Of a stretch of 64,000 bases of DNA, positions 15,390 to 59,258 are shown piece by piece; the first letter of the stretch is position 1; each line of letters begins with the position of its first letter. A program made the translations under genes and the position numbers. Source of the DNA: an uncultured virus (IMG/VR IMGVR_UViG_3300027418_000007) (lineage: Duplodnaviria > Heunggongvirae > Uroviricota > Caudoviricetes); the IMG/VR virus record IMGVR_UViG_3300027418_000007; one strand, written 5' to 3'. Below the pieces are notes generated by a model. It was not told the origin of the DNA. It searched no databases and worked only from the letters and a program-made list of their open reading frames with translations.

Positions 15390-18307
15390 TGGCAGACATT
15401 AGAACTAATATCTTTGGTATTGGTGAGGTTTACGAACTCCAAAAGGAAGGGCAGTGGGTAGAAAGAAATAGAGAGTCTTATAGAGAGTTTGGGTATTTTG
15501 CAGGAGGTAATGATGGTGTAGTGGGATCTAGTTATAGTGGTGTTAATCGAATTGATTTTTCAAATGATACCGCAACATCAAATTCAAGAGCAATACTTGC
15601 AATCGAAGGTCGTTATCTTTCTGGGGTAAATAATAAAAATTATGGTTATATGAGTGGGGAATCTAATCTGGGACTTTTCAATAAATTTAATTTTGCAAAT
15701 GAAACTTCAACTAGTATTGGATATTTAGTACCTGGTACAAATATTGGATATACTGGTAATTTATCTAATCCTAATTTTGGTTATTTTTGTGGAGGAGATT
15801 ACACTGTTCCTGGAGCAACAAGCACTGTAAGAAGAATTAATTTTTCAAATGATACTGCACTATTATCCAATAGAGGTAATCAAACACAAAATAGAAACTT
15901 ATGTGCCGGAGCAGGAAATTCTAATTTTGGTTATTTAAATGGTTCAAGAAATAATCCACAGTCTTCTGTTGATCGTATTGATTATTCAAATGATAGTGTG
16001 CTGTGTCGTGTTCGTGGTCCAATGTCTTTTGGAACCGAACATAGGGGTAATAAAGCAGGAAATTCAAATTTTGGGTGGTTTACTAATAGTTATTCTGCAA
16101 CATATGTCCAAAGAATATCTTATGCAAATGATTTAGTTTCTGCTAGTGTTCGTGGAAATACAAATTCAACATATAGTGCTAATGATATAGGAAATGGTAA
16201 TTTTTCTATTTGTTATAGAAGTGGTTCAAGTCCACTCGAAAAAGTTGATTATTCTAATGATACAGTTTTAGCATCCACAAGAGGTAATTTGCATCCACAA
16301 AGATTCGGAGAAGCATCTATGTGTGCATCATCATTCGGTGGTTCTCCTGTTTCGTATCTTGGAGCACCTTGGACTGCTACTGCTCCTTTTGGTTATTTTG
16401 GTGGTGGGAGAAATACTCAACTTTCTATTGTAGATCGCATAGATTATACTAATGATACAACAACAGCATCAGTAAGAGGTCCATTAACTTTAGCAAGATA
16501 TGGATTAGCAGCAACAGGAAATTCTAACTTTGGGTATTTTGGTGGAGGATTTAATAGTCCCCCTTTAGAATCTACAGTAGACCGCATAGATTATTCAAAT
16601 GATTTATCATCTGCGTTATTAAAAGGTCCATTAACTATTGCAAGACATAGAATATCAGCAACTGGAAACTCCAACTTTGGATATTTTATTGGGGGAGGCA
16701 CTGTAAATGGAAGTCAAAGATCAACTGTAGATCGTGTTAATTATGTAAACGACAGTGTTGTTACATCATCTAGAGGTCCATTAAGTGCAATAAAAACTGC
16801 TGGATCTGCAACTGGAAACTCTAACTTTGGATATTATACTGGAGGAGTTGGAGCACCTGGAAATATTGCATTAACTATAACCGATAGGATGGACTATTCA
16901 AATGATACCTCAACATCTTCTTCCAGAGGACCATTAAATGCAGCAAGAACTTATATGTCTGCATCTGGAGCTCAAAATTTTGGTTATGTGTTTGGTGGGA
17001 GAGATGGTGCTAATAATAAATTATCTTCGATAGAAAGAATAAATTATACAAATGATACTTCTACTGCAGCATTTAGAGGTAATCTTGCAACTGCTGACAT
17101 GTTTAGAACTGGAGCAACAAGTAGTTCTAATTTTGGATATATTGGTGGTTATGGGGATCCAGGACAATTCTCTACAGTAAATCGTTTGGATTATACAAAT
17201 GATACTCAAACTGCATCTGTTAGAGGTCCATTAAGTTCAGCAAGATATGAGACTGCAGCATCATCCTCACAAGCATACGGAGGTGCTCCAAATACCACGG
17301 TGGATCCACTTCCTTCTTATATTCGTGCGGCAACAAAATGGATTGATTCTAATACTTTAGACTTGCCATTTAAGAGAGTACTGGGGTCTTATGGGTATTT
17401 TTATGGAGGAATTACTTATTCTAATATTCATAGAATAGATTTTTCAAATGACACAACACTAGTAACTAGACCAATTCTAACTGCGAATCTTTCTACACAA
17501 GAATTTATGTGTGGATTTGGAAATAATAATTATGGATATGCTGCCGGTGGTGGAGCATTTTCCTATCCATCCACATCATTAATTCAAAGAATAGATTATA
17601 GTAATGATTCTTCATCATCTTCTATTCGTGGAAGCTTGAGTGTATCTAGAGGAGCAATATCAGGTTCTTTTTCAAATAATAACTATGGATATGTGGGGGG
17701 AGGATTCCAAACTGGTGTGGGTTTTAAAAGCACAGTTGATAGGTTAGATTTTTCAAATGATTTGAATACTGCTATAACCAAAGGAAGTTTATCTCTGGCA
17801 AGAAGTTCTATGTCTGGTATGGTTTTTGGAAATACATTTGGATATTTTGGTAGTGGTGGATCTGGTGCAACTGCTAGTGGATATTTTGAAGGTGATACAA
17901 CAATTATTAATAGAGTTTCATTTAGTAATGATATAATTACCACACCATTAAGAGGAAAAATGACTGTCCAAAGGGGAAGATATGCAACATCATATAATAG
18001 TAACTATGGTTGGTTTGCTGGTGGTAGAGTTCCTGGTGCTCCAAATGGAGTTATAGTTACTTCAGTGGAAAGAATAGATTTTTCAAATGATTTGATAACA
18101 AATTCTACAAGAGGTTCATTAAATGAAGTTAAGAATTATTTTGCAGGAACAGGAAATGAAACATATGGTTGGTTTTCTATGGGAGAAGGAAGTTCCAAAA
18201 TTGAAAGAATAAATTATTCTAACGATTTGGTTGCTGCAAGTATAAGGCAGACAAATGCTCCATATGTTTCACTGTCAATAGGAACAACCAACGCAAGATC
18301 CTCATAA
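15389..18307 (+). CDS. Kelch-like triple beta-propeller protein, paralogue 1
   Basis: About 48-aa repeats ATGNSNFGYFGGG...VDRIDYSND...RGPL..AR in three blocks separated by linkers. Confidence 0.75.
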   Translation: MADIRTNIFGIGEVYELQKEGQWVERNRESYREFGYFAGGNDGVVGSSYSGVNRIDFSNDTATSNSRAILAIEGRYLSGVNNKNYGYMSGESNLGLFNKFNFANETSTSIGYLVPGTNIGYTGNLSNPNFGYFCGGDYTVPGATSTVRRINFSNDTALLSNRGNQTQNRNLCAGAGNSNFGYLNGSRNNPQSSVDRIDYSNDSVLCRVRGPMSFGTEHRGNKAGNSNFGWFTNSYSATYVQRISYANDLVSASVRGNTNSTYSANDIGNGNFSICYRSGSSPLEKVDYSNDTVLASTRGNLHPQRFGEASMCASSFGGSPVSYLGAPWTATAPFGYFGGGRNTQLSIVDRIDYTNDTTTASVRGPLTLARYGLAATGNSNFGYFGGGFNSPPLESTVDRIDYSNDLSSALLKGPLTIARHRISATGNSNFGYFIGGGTVNGSQRSTVDRVNYVNDSVVTSSRGPLSAIKTAGSATGNSNFGYYTGGVGAPGNIALTITDRMDYSNDTSTSSSRGPLNAARTYMSASGAQNFGYVFGGRDGANNKLSSIERINYTNDTSTAAFRGNLATADMFRTGATSSSNFGYIGGYGDPGQFSTVNRLDYTNDTQTASVRGPLSSARYETAASSSQAYGGAPNTTVDPLPSYIRAATKWIDSNTLDLPFKRVLGSYGYFYGGITYSNIHRIDFSNDTTLVTRPILTANLSTQEFMCGFGNNNYGYAAGGGAFSYPSTSLIQRIDYSNDSSSSSIRGSLSVSRGAISGSFSNNNYGYVGGGFQTGVGFKSTVDRLDFSNDLNTAITKGSLSLARSSMSGMVFGNTFGYFGSGGSGATASGYFEGDTTIINRVSFSNDIITTPLRGKMTVQRGRYATSYNSNYGWFAGGRVPGAPNGVIVTSVERIDFSNDLITNSTRGSLNEVKNYFAGTGNETYGWFSMGEGSSKIERINYSNDLVAASIRQTNAPYVSLSIGTTNARSS

Positions 18308-33335: not shown

Positions 33336-33395
33336 TGTCTAACTCGTAGAGGTTTAGATTTATATAAATAATTATAACCTTTTATGAGTTAGACA
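33336..33395 (+). promoter_or_regulatory. Translation-control hairpin with a late promoter in its loop
   Basis: 33336-33354 pairs with 33376-33395; TATAAATA at 33363-33370; GTG start at 33396. Confidence 0.75.
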
Positions 33396-34121
33396 GTGTA
33401 TAATATTTACTTAATTACCAACCTTGATAATAATAAAAAGTATGTTGGACTAACAAAGTTTTCTATCACGGAAAGATTTTATCAACACGTAAAAAGAGGA
33501 TTTCTTCTAACTGAGGCAATCAAAAAGTACGGTGAAGATAAGTTTTTTATTGAATTGATTGAAGAAGTTGATACTGCTGGAAGAGCATATGAATTGGAGC
33601 AGTATTATATTAAAGAGTATAATACCAAAGTTCCTTATGGTTATAATTTAACTGATGGTGGCGACGGCATTTTTGGTTGGGAAGTAACCGAAGAATATCG
33701 TCAAGAATGTTCCGAAAGAGTTAAACAACTTCATAAAGAAAAAAAAGTTGGTATGTACGGTAAGAATCATAGTGATGAAACAAAAAGAAAAATGAGTGTC
33801 GCCTCAAAAGGTAAATCAAAACCTTGGTTAATTGGAAGAAAACTGAGTCCAGAATCTATTGAAAAATTGCGTCAAATAAATCTTGGTAGAGTTCTTAGTG
33901 ATGAAACTAGAAAAAAAATTAGTGAAAATCATCACGATGTAAATGGGGAAAATAATCCTATGTATGGAAAAAAGCACTCTCCAGAAACTATTGAAAAGTT
34001 AAGAGAAAAGGCAAAAAATCGTCCAAAGAGAGTTTGGATTAATAATGGTATTGAAGAAAAACTTATGAATATTGACGAATCTATACCTATGGGTTATAAT
34101 AAAGGAAGAGTGAGGTCTTAA
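33396..34121 (+). mobile_element. Free-standing GIY-YIG homing endonuclease with NUMOD3-like repeats (Seg-like)
   Basis: IYLITN...YVG, R...H, E..YI and GYN motifs; repeated HS.ETK.K(M/I)S and NPMYGKKHS. Confidence 0.88.
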
Positions 34122-41317: not shown

Positions 41318-43043
41318 TCTATCATCTCCAATTGGACCCACTATAGATGTTGTGGCAAGAACAGTTTCTCGTTCTGTCATAAGTGGTGGTGCCGGTGGAG
41401 GTGGTGGTATTCCTGGTGGAGGTGGAGGAAGAGGTGGTGCTCTTGCCGTGCAACCTCAGGCAAGTTTAGTTAATGTTGAAAGAAATTTGGAGGTTCAAAC
41501 TGTCCAAAATGTTCAACAAACTCAAGAGATTTCTGCTCTTAGAGGTACAGTAGATGCCTTACGAGCAGAAACCACAACTCTAAATAATGGTCTTGGAAAT
41601 GTTTCTAATCTAATACAGCAAGATAGTGCCGTAGAGAAGCAACAGGCATCGGCAGAAGCAGAAAGTGAAAGAAAACTTGCCGAAACAAATATTAGACTGG
41701 GGAAAGAATCTCAACTAGAACAAAAAATTACAAATGCTCTGGCAAAACCTGTTCAGGCTCTGCAGCAGAAAGTTGGTAATATATTTGGAAGAATAGGAGA
41801 GGCTCTAACTGCATTATTTGCCGGATGGTTGACTAATCAAGGAATAGAAGCACTTAAGGCAGCATCAGAAGGAAATAAAAACAAATTAGAAGAAATTAAA
41901 GATAATGTTCTTAAACATATTGGATTTGGCGTAGCTGCTATTGGTGCAATCAAAATAGGATTTGATTTGGTAATCAAAACTATTACTGGTATTACTGGAA
42001 AAATAGGTTCAATTTTACTTAAACTTGCCAAAGCTCCTCTAAAACTTTTAAGAAGTGCTCTTCAAGCTGCTCCATTAGTGGGAGGTCTTTTTGGTGGTCC
42101 AAAACCTGGTGGTCCAAAACCTCCTGCTGGACCTGGTGTAAAACCTCCAGCATCAGGAAATCCAATTGCAAGAGGTGTGGGTGCAGTTGCCAATTTTGCT
42201 GGAAAAGCACTTACTGCTGTTGGTGGTGTTATGGATGCTGCATCCGGGCAATATACAGACTCTGCTCTTGCCGCTGGTGCTTTACTTGCTCCCGGAGCAC
42301 TCAAAATTCCTTTTGGTCTTGCATATGGTCTAGATTCAATTAGAGAAATGTTTGGTGGTAATATTTTTGGTAAAAATCCAAATGAACCAGAAAAACCACC
42401 AACAACACCAGCGGCAAAAGTCTTACCAACAACTCCTAAGGCAGGAAATCCAAAACCAGCACCAAAACCAGAAACACCACCACCAACAATAGTAGGACCA
42501 ATAGAAGAACCAGCGGCAGCACCGGCAGCAGTGCAACCACAAAACTCTATGTTGTCTCAACCAATATCAGAGGCAGCACCAATATCTCAACCACAAACAC
42601 CGGCAATTCCTCCACCAAGTCCCGAAATGGTGAAAAACTTTGAGATGGCTTGGAAATATAAAGATAACTCTATGGCAAGAGGAAGAATTGAGTCTGCCTG
42701 GAATAATATGACTTATGAACAGCAACAGCAGGCAAAGGAATGGGCAAAATCAACAGACAAGGATTGGACTGAAATGAAGTTGGTCGAAAAACCACCTACA
42801 GTCCAAGCAGTACCACTACCATCAGCACAGGTTCAACCACTTCCTAAACCCACTCAAAATGTAGGAGAACTTACTGAACCGGCACCGAATGTGGTAATGA
42901 TGTCATCGGGTCAAAGTAACAATCAACAATCTTCTATTTCACAGGCACCAACGAATGGAACCGATACTCCTTTGATTAGTTCTTCTAATCCTGATAATTT
43001 TTATGTTCTTTACTCTCAACTGAATTATAATGTGGTGATATAA
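41310..43043 (+). CDS. Tape-measure/hub-like protein (gp29-like position)
   Basis: 577 aa; coiled-coil, then A/G-rich amphipathic segments and a Pro-rich tail; follows gp26/gp51. Confidence 0.55.
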   Translation: MASLSSPIGPTIDVVARTVSRSVISGGAGGGGGIPGGGGGRGGALAVQPQASLVNVERNLEVQTVQNVQQTQEISALRGTVDALRAETTTLNNGLGNVSNLIQQDSAVEKQQASAEAESERKLAETNIRLGKESQLEQKITNALAKPVQALQQKVGNIFGRIGEALTALFAGWLTNQGIEALKAASEGNKNKLEEIKDNVLKHIGFGVAAIGAIKIGFDLVIKTITGITGKIGSILLKLAKAPLKLLRSALQAAPLVGGLFGGPKPGGPKPPAGPGVKPPASGNPIARGVGAVANFAGKALTAVGGVMDAASGQYTDSALAAGALLAPGALKIPFGLAYGLDSIREMFGGNIFGKNPNEPEKPPTTPAAKVLPTTPKAGNPKPAPKPETPPPTIVGPIEEPAAAPAAVQPQNSMLSQPISEAAPISQPQTPAIPPPSPEMVKNFEMAWKYKDNSMARGRIESAWNNMTYEQQQQAKEWAKSTDKDWTEMKLVEKPPTVQAVPLPSAQVQPLPKPTQNVGELTEPAPNVVMMSSGQSNNQQSSISQAPTNGTDTPLISSSNPDNFYVLYSQLNYNVVI

Positions 43044-49269: not shown

Positions 49270-49298
49270 TTGACAACCCGCCCCAGATGCCCTATAAT
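49270..49298 (+). promoter_or_regulatory. Consensus sigma70 promoter
   Basis: TTGACA-N17-TATAAT; TTGACAACCC is duplicated at 49259. Confidence 0.85.
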
Positions 49299-49324: not shown

Positions 49325-49510
49325 ATGCCTGTCGAAGAGACCCTGACCCGCTGTGTTGTCGATACTCTTGCTCGTAAGTTCTATCTGTATTCAAGCGAAG
49401 GTGGTGAAAAAGTTGTGAATTGTGAGACCGTAGACCAGTTTATGAATGTTCTTGAAGTGGTTCGTGCTCAGGTAAGTGATGATTGTCTTGCATACTCAAA
49501 TCCTCTTTGA
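49325..49510 (+). CDS. Conserved cyanophage hypothetical protein
   Basis: 61-aa ORF, first gene after the promoter. Confidence 0.65.
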   Translation: MPVEETLTRCVVDTLARKFYLYSSEGGEKVVNCETVDQFMNVLEVVRAQVSDDCLAYSNPL

Positions 49511-49513
49511 TAA

Positions 49514-49696
49514 ATGGAAAAGTTTACGGTAGAAGAATTTCAATCAGACTTTGATAATCTACTAGAAAGAGTGGAAAATGGAGAGTCTTTTATTGTTACT
49601 AGCGAACACGGAGATGCTATGATGATTCCTTATAGTCAATACAAAGAAGCAGACGACCTCATACGAATACACACCGACCACGAAGAAGGTTGTTGA
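49514..49696 (+). CDS. Phd/YefM antitoxin-like small protein
   Basis: TVEEF...F..LLERVE.GES..VT..HG.A.MIP pattern. Confidence 0.55.
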   Translation: MEKFTVEEFQSDFDNLLERVENGESFIVTSEHGDAMMIPYSQYKEADDLIRIHTDHEEGC

Positions 49697-49744
49697 GTCA
49701 AGGCAACTTATAGGTCTTATATGTTGCTTCAAGGCAACTTTTAT

Positions 49745-49817
49745 GGGCGGATAATTTAATTGGTCAAAATGCTCTGCTTATAACGGAGTTATGAGGGATC
49801 ATGGCCCTCTCTGCCTA
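49745..49817 (+). tRNA. tRNA-Ile (anticodon UAU)
   Basis: Full cloverleaf: GGGCGGA/TCTGCCT, ATTT/AAAT, CTCTG-CT TAT AA-CGGAG, GAGGG/CCCTC; CCA not encoded. Confidence 0.8.
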
Positions 49818-49846
49818 TTGACCATAATGACTCTTTGAGTTATAAT
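49818..49846 (+). promoter_or_regulatory. Sigma70-type promoter inside an inverted repeat between the tRNAs
   Basis: TTGACC-N17-TATAAT; GACCATAATGACTC / GAGTTATAATGGTC imperfect palindrome. Confidence 0.65.
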
Positions 49847-49860
49847 GGTCTCATACACAA

Positions 49861-49942
49861 GCCCCCTTGGCGTAATTGGTAGCCGCTACGGATTTAAAAT
49901 CCGTTGACTTTAGTCGTGCCGGATCGTACCCGGCAGGGGGTA
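49861..49942 (+). tRNA. tRNA-Leu (anticodon UAA)
   Basis: GCCCCCT/AGGGGGT, ACGGA-TT TAA AA-TCCGT, long variable arm GAC-TTTA-GTC, GCCGG/CCGGC. Confidence 0.9.
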
Positions 49943-49974
49943 TTGAAATAAATATAAGATATTGAGATACTCAA

Positions 49975-50283
49975 ATGTCTTTCAAGTATAAAATAAGTCA
50001 GTCATACTGTTGGTATAATAACGGAAGTATGATTGTGAAAATGTACTTCATCAACGAGATTCCATTTACCTTCGATGAATTACCTGACGGGCACTTATAC
50101 GACCAAGACCTCTGTAGAACGGCAGATAAGTATCGTGCATATGAACCAGATGATTTATTTAAGAACTCATTCTATCTTATAGACGAGGAAGCACACCCAT
50201 TACTTTTTGATATGGACCTAGAAAACCCCCAAGACCTTCCAGATGAAGGTTATGAGTTTTTGCGGCAGGACTTATCTTCATAA
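49975..50283 (+). CDS. Conserved cyanophage hypothetical protein
   Basis: YCWY....IVKMYFIN.IPFTFDEL...S.YLI.EE.HP; AATAAATA upstream. Confidence 0.7.
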   Translation: MSFKYKISQSYCWYNNGSMIVKMYFINEIPFTFDELPDGHLYDQDLCRTADKYRAYEPDDLFKNSFYLIDEEAHPLLFDMDLENPQDLPDEGYEFLRQDLSS

Positions 50284-50320
50284 ATAATGGTGCTTATTCG
50301 TGGTTGTTTAGGCAAAGATT

Positions 50321-50345
50321 AAGGGGCAGAAATGCTCCTTTTCTT
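50321..50345 (+). terminator. Intrinsic terminator
   Basis: AAGGGGCA-GAAA-TGCTCCTT followed by TTCTT. Confidence 0.75.
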
Positions 50346-50346
50346 G

Positions 50347-50354
50347 TATAAATA
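50347..50354 (+). promoter_or_regulatory. T4-type late promoter (TATAAATA)
   Basis: Exact consensus 24 nt before the endonuclease ATG. Confidence 0.8.
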
Positions 50355-50377
50355 AGTATAACCACGAATAAAGTAGA

Positions 50378-50923
50378 ATGAATAATTATTACACTTATGC
50401 ATATTTGCGTGAAGATGGAACACCATATTATATCGGTAAAGGTAAAGCAGGTAGAATTAATAATACCTTACACACTATTCATCTTCCAGTAAAAGAAGAA
50501 AGAAGAATATTCTTAAAGAAAAATCTTACCGATGAAGAAGCAAGGAAGCACGAGATTTATATGATTGCTGTTTTAGGTAGAAAAGATTTAGGAACAGGAA
50601 TTTTAAGAAATATGACCGATGGTGGGGAAGGTTGTGCCGGTCGTGTTTTAAGTGAAGAAACAAAAAAGAAGTTGAGTGATAGTCATAAAGGAAGAAAGAA
50701 AAGTGAGGCACACCGAAAAGCATTAAGTGAGGCGGCGAAGAAAAGAAAAGCAAGTGAAGAAACAAGAGAAAAAATGAGTAAAGTTTTTATGGGAGAAAAT
50801 AATCCGTCTTTTGGGAAAAAGTGGTGGAATAATGGTGTAGAAAATAAACTCTGTAAAGAATGTCCCGGTGAAGAATATGTTTTAGGATTTCTGAACAAGT
50901 ATTGGATGAATAAACATAAATAA
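50378..50923 (+). mobile_element. Free-standing GIY-YIG-family homing endonuclease with NUMOD3-like repeats
   Basis: YTYAYLREDGTPYYIGKG..R, E..MI, LRN.TDGGEG and SEETKKKLS repeats. Confidence 0.85.
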
Positions 50924-50950
50924 AACATATTAGGTATATTAGTAATAAAT

Positions 50951-53900
50951 ATGGGATTAAACAAACTTGATAATTTTATAAAGAACACAGAAGGTCGCAT
51001 TCTTTATGTTTCTCCAAGTGACCTTGATTCTACTGATAGTATTAGTAATCAGGGTAATTCACTTGCTCAACCCTTCAAGACGCTACAGAGAGCACTTCTA
51101 GAAGCAGCAAGATTTTCCTATCAGAGAGGAAATAGTAATGATGATGTAGAGAAGACTACAATTCTCTTAATGCCAGGAGCACATACGGTTGATAACAGAC
51201 CTGGTTTTTCTATAAAAACTGTTGGTACTACTGCAACAGTAACATCTCCAAGTGGGGCAACATCTGCGGCATCAAATACCTTATCACTTACACTCAATTC
51301 AGTATTTGACCTCACACAAGACGATAATATTCTTTATAAGTTCAATAGTGTTAATGGTGGTGTTGTTGTACCCAGAGGAACCTCAATCGTTGGTCTAGAT
51401 TTAAGAAAGACTAAGATTCGTCCAAAATATGTTCCGAACCCAACAGATTCTTCTGTTCCAAACTCGGCAATTTTTAGAATTACCGGTGCCTGCTATTTCT
51501 GGCAGTTCTGTATCTTTGACGGCAGTACAGAAGGTACGGTATATACTGACCCAACAGATTTTTCCGTCAATAACAAATCAATCCCAACATTCTCCCACCA
51601 CAAACTCACATGCTTTGAGTATGCAGATGGAGTAAATCTATATGAAGATACAGGTCTTACTGACTTGGATATGTATTATGCGAAACTCTCTAATGCATTT
51701 AATCTTGCATCTGGTAGAGACATCGATCAAAAGTATCCTGCCGATCCTCTTGGTTTTGAGAAGCAGAGGCCAGAATGGGAGATTGTAGGTGCTTTTGCCG
51801 CAGATCCTATTAAGATTTCTACAATTGAGTCTGGGTCTGGTGGAACCGCAAGTAGTCAGGTTACGGTCAAAACTTTAGTACCTCACGAACTCTCGGCAGG
51901 AACTCCAATTAAGATTAGTGGAGTTTCTCCGGAAAACTATAATATCTCAACAAAAGTTCAGAGTATTAGTGATACGGACCCAACTGTCTTTACATATCTT
52001 CTTCCAAATTTCCCACTCAATCTAACAACACCAGGAAGTGCATCTAGTGCATTTGTAACAATTGAGACTGATACCGTATCCGGAGCATCTCCATATATCT
52101 TTAATATTTCATTGCGTTCCGTTTATGGTATGAATGGAATGCTTGCCGATGGTAGTAAGGCATCGGGTTTTCGTTCGATGGTTGTTGCACAATTTACTGG
52201 CGTATCTCTACAAAAAGATGACCGTGCATTTGTAAGATATAATCCAACAAATAGAGATTATTCTGACAATATTGCCATCTCCAGAGTTGCCGGAGCAACT
52301 TTATCTGGTAATTCTTCTTCTACCAGCATAGCATATCATCTAGAACCACTATCAATTTATAGAAGTGGATGGGAATCAAGTCACATTAAAGCAACAAATG
52401 ATGCCTTTATTCAGATTGTTTCCGTATTTGCAATTGGTTTTAATAAGCACTTTGATTCTGAAAGTGGTGGAGACCTGAGTATCACTAACTCAAACTCCAA
52501 CTTCGGGCAGATTTCACTTACTTCTTCTGGATTTAAGAAAGAAGCATTTGATAAGGACAATAAAGCATTCATCACCTCAATTATTGCTCCAAGAGCAATT
52601 GTAGGAGAAGAAGATAATATTGATTGGATTTCATTAGATGTTGCCAAGATTGATGCACCGAGTAGTAATAACGCCAGACTATATCTATTTGGATTTACTT
52701 CTGAAGATGATGTACCACCAGTACTCACTCAGGGATATAGAATTGGTGCAAAAGTAGGTGATAAACTATATTTTACTGCAAACGGGACAGAATACTCGGC
52801 AAATATTTTAATGTCCGATGGAGTCACAAGTTCTGTTAAAGAATATTCAGTAACTGGCATCCCATCATCAAATAAATTTACAATTGGATCTCATAATATT
52901 CAGACTGGTGAAAAAGTTATTATTCTGAGTGATGATGGTGATTTGCCAGAAAATATTGTAGAAAATACAGTTTATTATGCAATTGCAAGTGATGTTGACG
53001 GTAGTTTAACTGCAAATGAAATTAAACTTGCTTCTTCACAATCGGCAGCAGTCAGTGCAAATGCAATTAGCGTTTATAAAGGAACTGGTCTAAGAATTCT
53101 GAGTCGGGTATCAGATAAGGTTGCCGGAGATGTCGGGCACCCAGTACAATATGATGGTACTCAGTGGTATATTACCACAAATGCTAATAGTGGCATTTAT
53201 ACGGCAATCAATTCATTGGGTGTTGCGGGATTAACAGAAAGAACCGAACCTTCTTATGTAAAGAGAACTGAAGATACCAGAAGTTTGGATGAAAAACTTT
53301 ATAAGATTAGAGTTGTAATTCCAAAAGAACTTGTGGGTGCCAAAAACCCAGAGGATGGATTTGTAATTCAAGAATCAAGTTTTACTGGAATTAGATCGGA
53401 TACTGACATTAATTTATCATCTCTTTCAACATCAGACTATGAGTATAACAGAAATCCAAGATTTATTAGTACTTGCTCTTTCAATGAATCTACCAAAATT
53501 GTAACTGTTACTTCTGAACTTCCACACAATCTTCAAGTTGGTGATAGTATTATTATCAAGAATGTAACGGACAGCACCAACCCTGCTGGAGTTGGAAATT
53601 CTGGATATAATGGAACCGTTGGGGTTTCATCAGTTTTTGATGATATGACCTTTAGATATTCTGTAGGAATAACTACTTTAGGATCATTCACAAATGTAAC
53701 CTCCAACAGAACAACCTCACTTCCAAGATTTGAGAGAAATGACTTACAAGCAAATCTTTACAATTATAGAAGCGAAGTAATCACTCCATACATTAGTGGT
53801 ATTCAGGATGGTGTTTATCACATCTATACTTTAAGTGCCGATAAGGCAATTCCAACAGAGTTCACAAATATTAAGTATAGTCAGAATGTTGTTGATTTAT

Positions 53901-58671: not shown

Positions 58672-58715
58672 GTTGTATAATTATATAAATAATAATATGG
58701 TAGGTTTCGCCACTT

Positions 58716-59258
58716 ATGTATTATACTTACGCATATCTAAGAGAAGATAAGACTCCATATTATATTGGTAGAGGAAAACATCATTCTGGATACAAATATC
58801 ATAGAATGACTCAAAAACATACTTGCGGTATACCTCCACAAGAAAGAAGATTAATCTTAAAAGATAATCTATCAAAAGAGCAAGCAATCAAACACGAAGA
58901 ATATATGATTGACTTGTTTGGTTTAGTTTGGGATGAAACTGGGGTATTAAGAAATCACGTTAGAGATAGTCGTGGTGGTAGTTGCAAAGGTAGAAAGCTT
59001 TCAGAGGAAACTAAACAAAAAATATCTGCTGCTATGAAAAATAAATGGCAAAGTGGTCTTTATGATACTGATGAATATAGAAATAAAATATCAGAAAGTA
59101 ATAGAAAAAATCCAAGAGTCAAACAACATAGTGAAGAAACAAAAGAAAAACAAAAAAAGGCAAGCACCGGAAGACCTCAAAGCGAAGAGACTAAGCAAAA
59201 AAGGTCTGAAAGTATAAAAAGGTGGTGGACAGAAAAAAAACTGGCACAAGACCCTTGA
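58716..59258 (+). mobile_element. Free-standing GIY-YIG-family homing endonuclease with NUMOD3-like repeats
   Basis: YYTYAYLREDKTPYYIGRG; paralogue of 50378-50923; TATAAATA at 58684. Confidence 0.82.

Follow-up and report, generated by a model that had tools for sequence, protein, structure and literature searches.

A conserved leader with a nested terminator and late promoter, probably a portable insulator and late switch, ahead of a homing endonuclease gene in a T4-like cyanophage

Description

In a 64,000-nucleotide (nt) stretch of the uncultured virus IMGVR_UViG_3300027418_000007 (the window), the leader of a homing endonuclease gene (50279-50377, plus strand) is a real, selected RNA element in which a terminator-like stem-loop and a late promoter stand between two complementary arms, and it probably serves a mobile endonuclease cassette as a portable insulator and late switch. 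The window belongs to a T4-like cyanophage, and 113 of the 126 phage records matching 49500-51500 are Synechococcus phages. Homing endonucleases are selfish genes, and harm to the phage carrying them has to be prevented; the arrangement in the window is a more elaborate variant of the control known from phage T4.

Read 5' to 3', the leader consists of an outer late-type box (P1), a first arm (arm1) whose core lies in the loop of a local hairpin (H1), the terminator-like stem-loop, an exact T4-type late promoter (P2) and a second arm (arm2) just ahead of the start codon (Table 1). The arms are complementary over 14 nt with one G-U pair (G50306:T50359), and exactly so over 12 nt (50294-50305 against 50360-50371). 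With the AUG (50378, itself unpaired) as reference, the helix occupies -20 to -4 (50358-50374); arm2 stops 6 nt short of the ATG, and the 3' strand with its additional AAG(U) stops 4-6 nt short of it. The only candidate ribosome-binding sequence partly inside the helix is a weak purine run, AAAGUAG, whose place is taken by AAAGCAG or AGAGUAG in relatives. The terminator scan reports a stem of 8 pairs, 4 of them G-C, with a loop of 4 and the sequence TTCTTGT directly after the stem; it calls the hairpin at 50321-50340 on the plus strand only, and no claim of bidirectional termination is made. A first-pass annotation, made from the letters alone, had proposed a box at 50279, arms at 50294-50307 and 50358-50371 with one G-U pair, an intervening terminator, TATAAATA at 50347 and a 6-nt gap to the ATG, and each of these is found where it was placed.

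Transcription starts were predicted, not mapped, by setting the late box at -13 to -6, the position that the late promoter TATAAATA occupies in T4 (the late box of Aeh1 is CTAAATA; PMC1524935). For P1 the predicted start is 50292, two bases ahead of arm1 and the first base of H1, and for P2 it is 50360, the first base of the exact 12-nt complement.

Conservation and covariation

Searching viral contigs with the protein yielded 443 relatives of the endonuclease, and the analysis retained the 80 best loci. In 29 of these 80, a covariance model derived from 33 leaders places the module immediately ahead of the gene, and it detects two further copies elsewhere in L019 and L021. Across the window it finds a single copy (108.1 bits), the next best match being the reverse strand of that same copy (17.4 bits). 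The model also detects the module in Synechococcus phage B3 (record MN695334, about 41,442-41,546), where the endonuclease occupies another locus, flanked by a hypothetical gene and a gene for NMN adenylyltransferase; the part that resembles the window starts at the outer box, and in the B3 arms (TTAATCGTGGTTGT / ATAACCACGATTAA) one pair has changed from T-A to A-T.

A scan for 15 bases comprising the terminator tail and P2 identified at least 125 loci, which with other loci gave 128 distinct sites. These were filtered without regard to the arms, by requiring an upstream TAAATA and a terminator hairpin, and 65 sites passed and 63 failed; the counts of units given here and below hold among the matches listed. 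The duplex of cognate arm1 and arm2 reaches -15 kcal/mol or lower in 65/65 passing units (mean -22.7 kcal/mol), compared with 109 of 650 pairings between arms of different units (mean -11.2 kcal/mol) and none of the 63 filtered-out sites. The passing units hold 47 distinct arm1 helices. Among the filtered-out sites are L105, a recognisable module with weaker arms (-14.1) that has no outer box, and six plain terminator-promoter units that have no arms. The P1 box stands at constant spacing in 65 of 66 arm-bearing modules, L105 being the exception.

In the alignment of 33 sequences, the proposed structure pairs 87.5% of the cells, against 37.6-54.7% when the partners are slid. The first-pass annotation had named covariation among homologues as a check on its proposal, and it is present: the covariation score is 0.433 versus 0.196 in shuffles (0/500 reach it), and both-sided changes occur in 8/12 core arm pairs and in 5/8 pairs of the terminator stem, although these counts overstate the number of independent events because the sequences are related. 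Mismatches within the helices are more often of the G-U type (39) than of the A-C type (15), a bias pointing to pairing in plus-strand RNA. The limits of the well-paired part of the helix coincide with the predicted starts, that of P1 at its beginning and that of P2 at its end; the two pairs ahead of the P2 start are open in 12 and 14 of the 33 sequences. H1 is present in the minimum free energy (MFE) structure of 44 of the 65 units (mean z -2.2), with stems that vary among GCUUA/UAAGC, GCUUG/CAAGC, CCUGA/UCAGG, CUCUA/UAGAG and GUCUG/UAGAC; within the subtype of the window itself, one of the five pairs shows a both-sided change.

RNA folding and chance expectation

Folded as RNA, 50284-50400 forms the long arm helix enclosing the terminator hairpin with an MFE of -33.7 kcal/mol, compared with -18.5 +/- 2.9 kcal/mol for shuffled sequences (z -5.2; 0/200 shuffles fold as well). 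The segment 50292-50346, which corresponds to an RNA running from the predicted P1 start through the terminator, is predicted to form two hairpins, H1 and the terminator (-19.9 kcal/mol, z -4.5, 52% of the ensemble). An RNA beginning at the predicted P2 start (50360-50400) is nearly unstructured in the folding model (-2.9 kcal/mol).

Exact inverted repeats of at least 12 nt within 120 nt number 4 in the window, against a mean of 0.57 and a maximum of 2 in 30 first-order Markov simulations, and a 12-nt inverted repeat alone is only mildly unusual by chance. An enrichment of TATAAATA in the window was considered and rejected (3 found, 5.9 expected). As chance repeats are not very rare and TATAAATA is not enriched, the case for the module beyond chance rests on its conservation and covariation in relatives. 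At 50279-50380 no Rfam family reaches its threshold; the best match is STnc50, with 22.9 bits against a gathering score of 55.

Late promoter motifs of the window

The genes of the window lie on the plus strand, and the plus/minus counts of the four possible boxes are 20/1 for ATAAATA, 11/2 for CTAAATA, 10/10 for GTAAATA and 6/7 for TTAAATA, giving 31 late-type boxes of the form [A/C]TAAATA on the plus strand and 3 on the minus strand. These strand-biased boxes lie mostly 16-37 nt ahead of open reading frame (ORF) starts and agree with the late promoter NATAAATA reported for cyanomyoviruses (PMC2984593). In many of them (those at 18304, 28066 and 56578 among others) the TAA also terminates the ORF before the box, so that the end of one gene and the promoter of the next are fused. 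The box at 50279 matches this junction motif and would therefore be an ordinary gene-junction late promoter.

Ordinary late genes of the window use NATAAATA or NCTAAATA. All three exact TATAAATA boxes in the window (33363, 50347 and 58684) directly precede homing-endonuclease ORFs, namely 33396-34121 (GIY-YIG/NUMOD3), 50378-50923 and 58716-59258 (NUMOD3), and the three leaders differ from one another. At 33363 the box sits in the loop of a simple hairpin that abuts a GTG start (z -5.3) and there is no terminator, which agrees with the contrast that the first-pass annotation had drawn between the leader at 50347 and the hairpin at 33336. At 50347 the hairpin contains a nested terminator. At 58684 the box follows a terminator, and there are no complementary arms (z -0.5).

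The endonuclease cassette and its mobility

The 181-aa protein behind the leader is, by sequence comparison, a GIY-YIG/NUMOD3 homing endonuclease. Pfam detects NUMOD3 (E 3.3e-15) and does not call GIY-YIG in this ORF, PHROG 314 'homing endonuclease' matches it (E 7.4e-13), and, from residue 6 on, a profile made from 17 relatives can be aligned with the Pfam-verified GIY-YIG/NUMOD3 protein encoded at 33396-34121 (hhalign 97.7%, E 2.2e-12, 154 columns, some of which belong to NUMOD3). Sequence searches of the PDB with the endonuclease gave nothing relevant. The AlphaFold model is of too low confidence (predicted local distance difference test score, pLDDT, 53) for fold assignment.

The gene is free-standing and mobile, as judged from its presence or absence at a fixed site between conserved genes. 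The insert is 636 bp long, lies between the 102-aa ORF and the tail-fibre gene, and is bounded by the 9-bp repeat CATAAATAA, of which P1 is the left copy. In the cultured phages S-SKS1 and S-SRM01 the site is empty: no gene separates the homologue of the 102-aa ORF from the tail-fibre gene behind it, and the junction carries GATAAATAA or ACTAAATAA. Orthologous filled sites are found in L006, L007, L009 and L010. Eleven metatranscriptome runs cover 0.05-0.17 of the stretch as assembled contigs, and X1, X2, X3 and X5 were examined. A contig of run X2 joins 50278 to 50915 and skips the 636 bases, with 9 letters that fit both sides, and a contig of run X1 holds a second, diverged empty allele. The right copy of CATAAATAA is likely to act as the late promoter of the tail-fibre gene, judging by its sequence and position. 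A box at the 3' end was also considered as a general feature of such cassettes and rejected: among 19 listed full-length cassettes, all distinct, five (L004, which is the copy in the window, L007, L009, L010 and L019) have TAAAT in the last 24 nt of the ORF.

The module is found in marine and freshwater phage contigs. An ORF is readable in 64 units, which show 56 distinct left flanks between them. Sorted by eye, the 64 N-termini behind it fall into at least six types, of which a few representatives each were submitted to family searches. Three types begin YYTYAYLRED (the type of the window), FYVYYSYEE and RIY(L/T)YKITF. A KIYC.HC...KKYIGQT type has a Pfam GIY-YIG match (E 1.8e-5 for L095), HH(I/V)P types have a weak Pfam HNH match (second ORF of L019), and the YLKVYCNLIRKAE type matches PHROG 655 'homing endonuclease' (E 4e-21). 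Tentative calls within flanks of about 200 nt put the module on the same strand as its neighbour in 43 cases and on the opposite one in 20, with 2 left uncalled; both strands are often open. On contigs with two or three modules, cognate arms pair at -20 to -26 kcal/mol and non-cognate arms at -4 to -18 kcal/mol, that is, the arms are orthogonal.

Some contigs carry two to four modules within a few kb (L105-L108 on one 19-kb contig, L019, L128/L129, and L042/L094); the arms differ from module to module, and the endonuclease types often do as well.

RNA contigs bridge the module in X3 (50167-50382) and in X5 (50264-50414), although contigs cannot show single transcripts. The X3 contig contains the end of the 102-aa ORF and the leader of the window and continues after the ATG with a different endonuclease ORF of the FYVYYSYE type, which suggests, unless the contig is chimeric, that the coding part was exchanged behind a fixed leader. 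Two X1 contigs begin at 50292, the position predicted for the P1 start; they were not used as evidence, since the end of an RNA cannot be read from that of a contig and strains branch at this place (variants at 50287 and 50290, joint at 50287). One further X1 contig runs from arm1 to P2 and continues into a different arm2, and it may be a chimera because the shared terminator-P2 stretch is as long as the word of the assembler.

Mobility of this kind could also be read as a sign that the inverted repeat acts as DNA, in the form of a cruciform or a recombination signal for cassette movement, with RNA pairing being incidental. The number of distinct left flanks and the 9-bp repeat bounding the insert agree with such a role, but the junctions lie at the late-type boxes and not at the arms, the excess of G-U-type over A-C-type mismatches is unexpected for pairing of DNA, and the arms differ between copies, which precludes their serving as a shared recognition site. 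We regard this explanation as highly improbable.

Proposed control by the leader

Masking of the endonuclease start in cis is, in our judgement, likely to be the main selected function of the module. Under this scheme, the terminator would stop incoming transcripts, whether they come from the sigma-70-like sites at 49270 and 49818, through the 102-aa ORF or from P1. RNA that reads through would carry arm1, which would pair with arm2 over about 16-18 bp and bury the 14-17 nt that end 4-6 nt before the AUG, leaving the endonuclease untranslated. Transcripts from P2 would start inside arm2 and carry no arm1; their 5' end would be open and they could be translated late, as in the T4-type mask, where the late RNA is likewise without the helix's 5' strand. 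The second junction box, at the 3' end of the endonuclease gene, would give the tail-fibre gene a late promoter again. That the promoters are active, where transcription starts, that it terminates and that translation is blocked is what we infer from these elements. The lock that read-through RNA would form in cis, also put forward by the first-pass annotation, is well supported by the conserved helix with its compensatory changes, the G-U strand bias and the T4-type layout.

Several points weigh against masking in cis as the main function. The neighbours are late structural genes, and much of the read-through would be late as well, so that the lock would control dose and not timing; the argument for early read-through rests on two promoter matches from a consensus scan. 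Since the helix covers part of a weak purine run, and neither the AUG nor a clear Shine-Dalgarno sequence, we only infer that initiation would be occluded. A cis lock does not itself need a P1 box at fixed spacing or an H1 that presents arm1, nor does it need the limits of the helix to coincide with the predicted P1 and P2 starts. These three features fit at least as well with the alternative that the leader works in trans.

In that alternative, the main product of the module would be a small RNA of about 55 nt that starts late from P1 at 50292, is released at the terminator and consists of H1 and the terminator hairpin. It would pair with the 5' end of the P2 mRNA and either lower translation or trigger cleavage, as a cognate-specific rheostat of dose; the two hairpins would also be present on 3' fragments of upstream mRNAs, and locking in cis would be a by-product or an additional use. 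The constant spacing of P1, kept in spite of 47 diverged helices, agrees with this, as do the stable two-hairpin fold of 50292-50346 and the recurrence of H1 with different stems. The exact complement begins at the predicted P2 start, the two pairs upstream of that start are often unpaired, and arms are orthogonal among the modules of one contig; in addition, where the neighbours are late, a lock against late read-through alone gives little timing information. However, the P1 box is already accounted for as a resident junction promoter, which empty sites have too and of which a second copy stands at the insert's right end, and in a portable cis module H1 could equally guard arm1 against mispairing with varying upstream mRNAs. 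The T4 precedents and the simple hairpin at 33336 manage with neither a terminator nor a separate promoter, the L105 module has no outer box, and kinship of the sequences inflates the apparent independence of the counts. On these grounds a trans-acting RNA as the main product is possible but rather unlikely, and it is similarly doubtful that the module as a whole is a small-RNA gene with its target, providing each endonuclease cassette with a private, orthogonal repressor. If the outer box is active and the terminator works, an RNA of about 55 nt complementary to the 5' end of the endonuclease mRNA would be made in any case. Likening such an RNA to an 'RNA antitoxin' is an analogy only. Were the terminated RNA to act in trans, the modules would form a family of orthogonal small-RNA/target pairs in lytic phages, a class of cassette-specific trans-acting RNAs of T4-like phages with a logic comparable to that of type I antitoxins or plasmid copy-control RNAs.

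A helix of 16-18 bp is long enough in principle for cleavage of the RNase III type, and the conserved helix could thus be an element of RNA processing or stability that separates the upstream message from that of the endonuclease, either because the duplex of about 17 bp is cut by a double-strand-specific RNase or because H1 and the terminator protect the 3' end of the upstream mRNA. Processing by RNase E has been reported for the transcripts of T4 segB and segG and of Aeh1 mobE (PMC2988022). The data indicate no cleavage site, however, and the helix always abuts the start codon and always contains a late promoter, neither of which a pure processing site needs, which makes this explanation improbable.

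With masking in cis as the preferred function, the module indicates that homing endonucleases can bring along their own stop signal for incoming transcription, a lock made of RNA, a late promoter to themselves and a substitute promoter for the neighbour that was displaced; equipped with such a unit, they could settle behind almost any cyanophage late-gene junction. Compact and widely copied, the module also lends itself to the study of compensatory RNA evolution, as a natural experiment, and to the annotation of mobile cassettes, as a ready marker.

Related systems

In I-TevI, I-TevII, I-TevIII, segB and Aeh1 mobE, a hairpin hides the ribosome-binding site of long transcripts, and a late promoter is placed such that the late RNA escapes it (PMC2988022). 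Masks with a late promoter in the hairpin are also found on the T4 genes e, soc and 49 (Edgell, Gibb and Belfort 2010, PMC2988022; Uzan and Miller 2010, PMC3014915), and several seg and mob genes embed promoters for displaced downstream genes (PMC2988022; PMC3014915). The leader in the window shares with the T4-type mask a helix upstream of or over the initiation region of a homing endonuclease gene and a TATAAATA box placed to free the late RNA of the 5' strand, and it shares with the seg and mob genes the presence of terminators and embedded downstream-gene promoters nearby. Unlike the T4-type mask, the module has a complete intrinsic terminator nested in the helix, a late-type box at fixed spacing before the 5' strand, a local hairpin that presents this strand and an unpaired AUG; it travels whole, as a unit of about 100 nt, before several unrelated endonuclease families, and it is known from sequence alone.

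In phage-like 'fractured gene' loci from marine metagenomes, hairpins were described in the 5' untranslated region upstream of 15/16 free-standing endonuclease ORFs, ten of them with TATAAATA (Dassa et al. 2009, PMC2677866). Two conserved motifs pair on the stem of these hairpins, which were read as translational control like that of Aeh1 mobE (PMC2677866). The accessible text of that paper mentions no terminator (0 occurrences), no second box upstream and no small RNA, and its hairpins may or may not represent the present module (PMC2677866). In the literature covered, which includes subscription journals only thinly, no nested terminator, second upstream late box or small RNA is described for cyanophage endonuclease leaders.

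Mobile cassettes of T4-type phages known as PeSL (promoter-early stem-loop) were reportedly described by Arbiol et al. in 2010. They are mobile promoter-terminator cassettes with early promoters of the sigma-70 type (Comeau et al. 2014, PMC4122927). According to the accessible text, PeSL resemble the module in being small composite terminator/promoter motifs that are repeated in a genome and located at the boundaries of inserted or swapped genes, and differ from it in having early promoters, no long-range complementary arms and no link to endonuclease leaders (PMC4122927); that 2014 text mentions no cyanophage or late-promoter PeSL (PMC4122927). The module was considered as a PeSL and rejected, since both of its boxes are late-type ([A/C]TAAATA and TATAAATA); all the same, it would function in the manner of a mobile promoter-terminator cassette.

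Cyanophage S-PM2 makes CfrI, an antisense RNA of about 225 nt that is encoded on the opposite strand across an endonuclease gene and psbA (Millard et al. 2010, as cited in PMC2984593 and PMC10690425). CfrI and the candidate RNA are alike as T4-like cyanophage RNAs complementary to a homing-endonuclease gene, whereas the candidate would be about 55 nt long, lie on the same strand and owe its complementarity to an inverted repeat.

Neighbouring genes and other leaders

The features of the leader and its surroundings are listed in Table 1.

Table 1. Positions of the leader elements and neighbouring features in the window.
Feature	Position	Strand	Remarks
Sigma-70-type promoter-like site TTGACA-17-TATAAT	49270-49298	+	Consensus scan only, 12/12
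tRNA genes (two)	49745-49817, 49861-49942	+	Rfam tRNA at 51.1 and 45.3 bits against a gathering score of 29; ahead of the 102-aa ORF
Sigma-70-type promoter-like site TTGACC-17-TATAAT	49818-49846	+	Consensus scan only, 11/12
102-aa ORF	49975-50283	+	phrog_4134, E 1.2e-32; homologue directly precedes the tail-fibre gene in insert-free phages
P1, late-type box CATAAATA(A)	50279-50287 (box 50279-50286)	+	Overlaps the stop codon TAA (50281-50283) of the 102-aa ORF
H1, local hairpin	50292-50313	+	GCUUA (50292-50296) pairs with UAGGC (50309-50313); arm1 core in the loop
Arm1 TTATTCGTGGTTGT	50294-50307	+	5' strand of the long-range helix
Intrinsic-terminator-like stem-loop AAGGGGCA-GAAA-TGCTCCTT	50321-50340, U-rich tract to 50346	+	
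P2, exact T4-type late promoter TATAAATA	50347-50354	+	Between the arms; predicted +1 at 50360
Arm2 ATAACCACGAATAA	50358-50371	+	3' strand of the helix; to 50374 with AAG(U), able to pair with GCUU
Endonuclease ORF, 181 aa	50378-50923	+	Putative free-standing homing endonuclease, GIY-YIG-like N-terminal domain and two NUMOD3 motifs
Right repeat copy CATAAATAA	50915-50923	+	Within the terminal codons of the endonuclease ORF; the tail-fibre ATG follows after 29 nt
Tail-fibre gene, 1876 aa	50951-56581	+	Downstream of the insert

A 60-aa ORF at 49514-49696 resembles the Phd/YefM antitoxin (Pfam E 7.7e-6, 26 bits, below the cut-off of 29.8), and the syntenic ORF of S-SKS1 is annotated as 'Phd-like antitoxin'. 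In the L006 cassette (1495-2067), the endonuclease ORF extends into the region where the tail-fibre gene starts, and this overlap of the endonuclease 3' end with a downstream gene recalls overlaps described in the marine fractured-gene loci (PMC2677866).

Two other kinds of leader occur among the relatives. A variant in L025/L027 and L035 has no visible outer late box and carries a leader-complementary segment (TAGGGGTATT or TGTCTGGGGA) inside the loop of the terminator hairpin, where pairing with the leader would be loop-to-tail. A second class precedes more distant endonuclease homologues (L043, L047, L049, L052, L053, L057, L060, L061, L063, L067-L069, L071, L074, L078 and L080-L083); it looks structured and unrelated to the arm module, and consists, within about 90 nt upstream of each match, of a late-type box, a spacer of about 5 nt, a hairpin-like element of about 45 nt (consensus near GTGYAGGTCGCGATGCTGGAAACATCCACCTRCTCTAA), a clear GGAG and the ATG.

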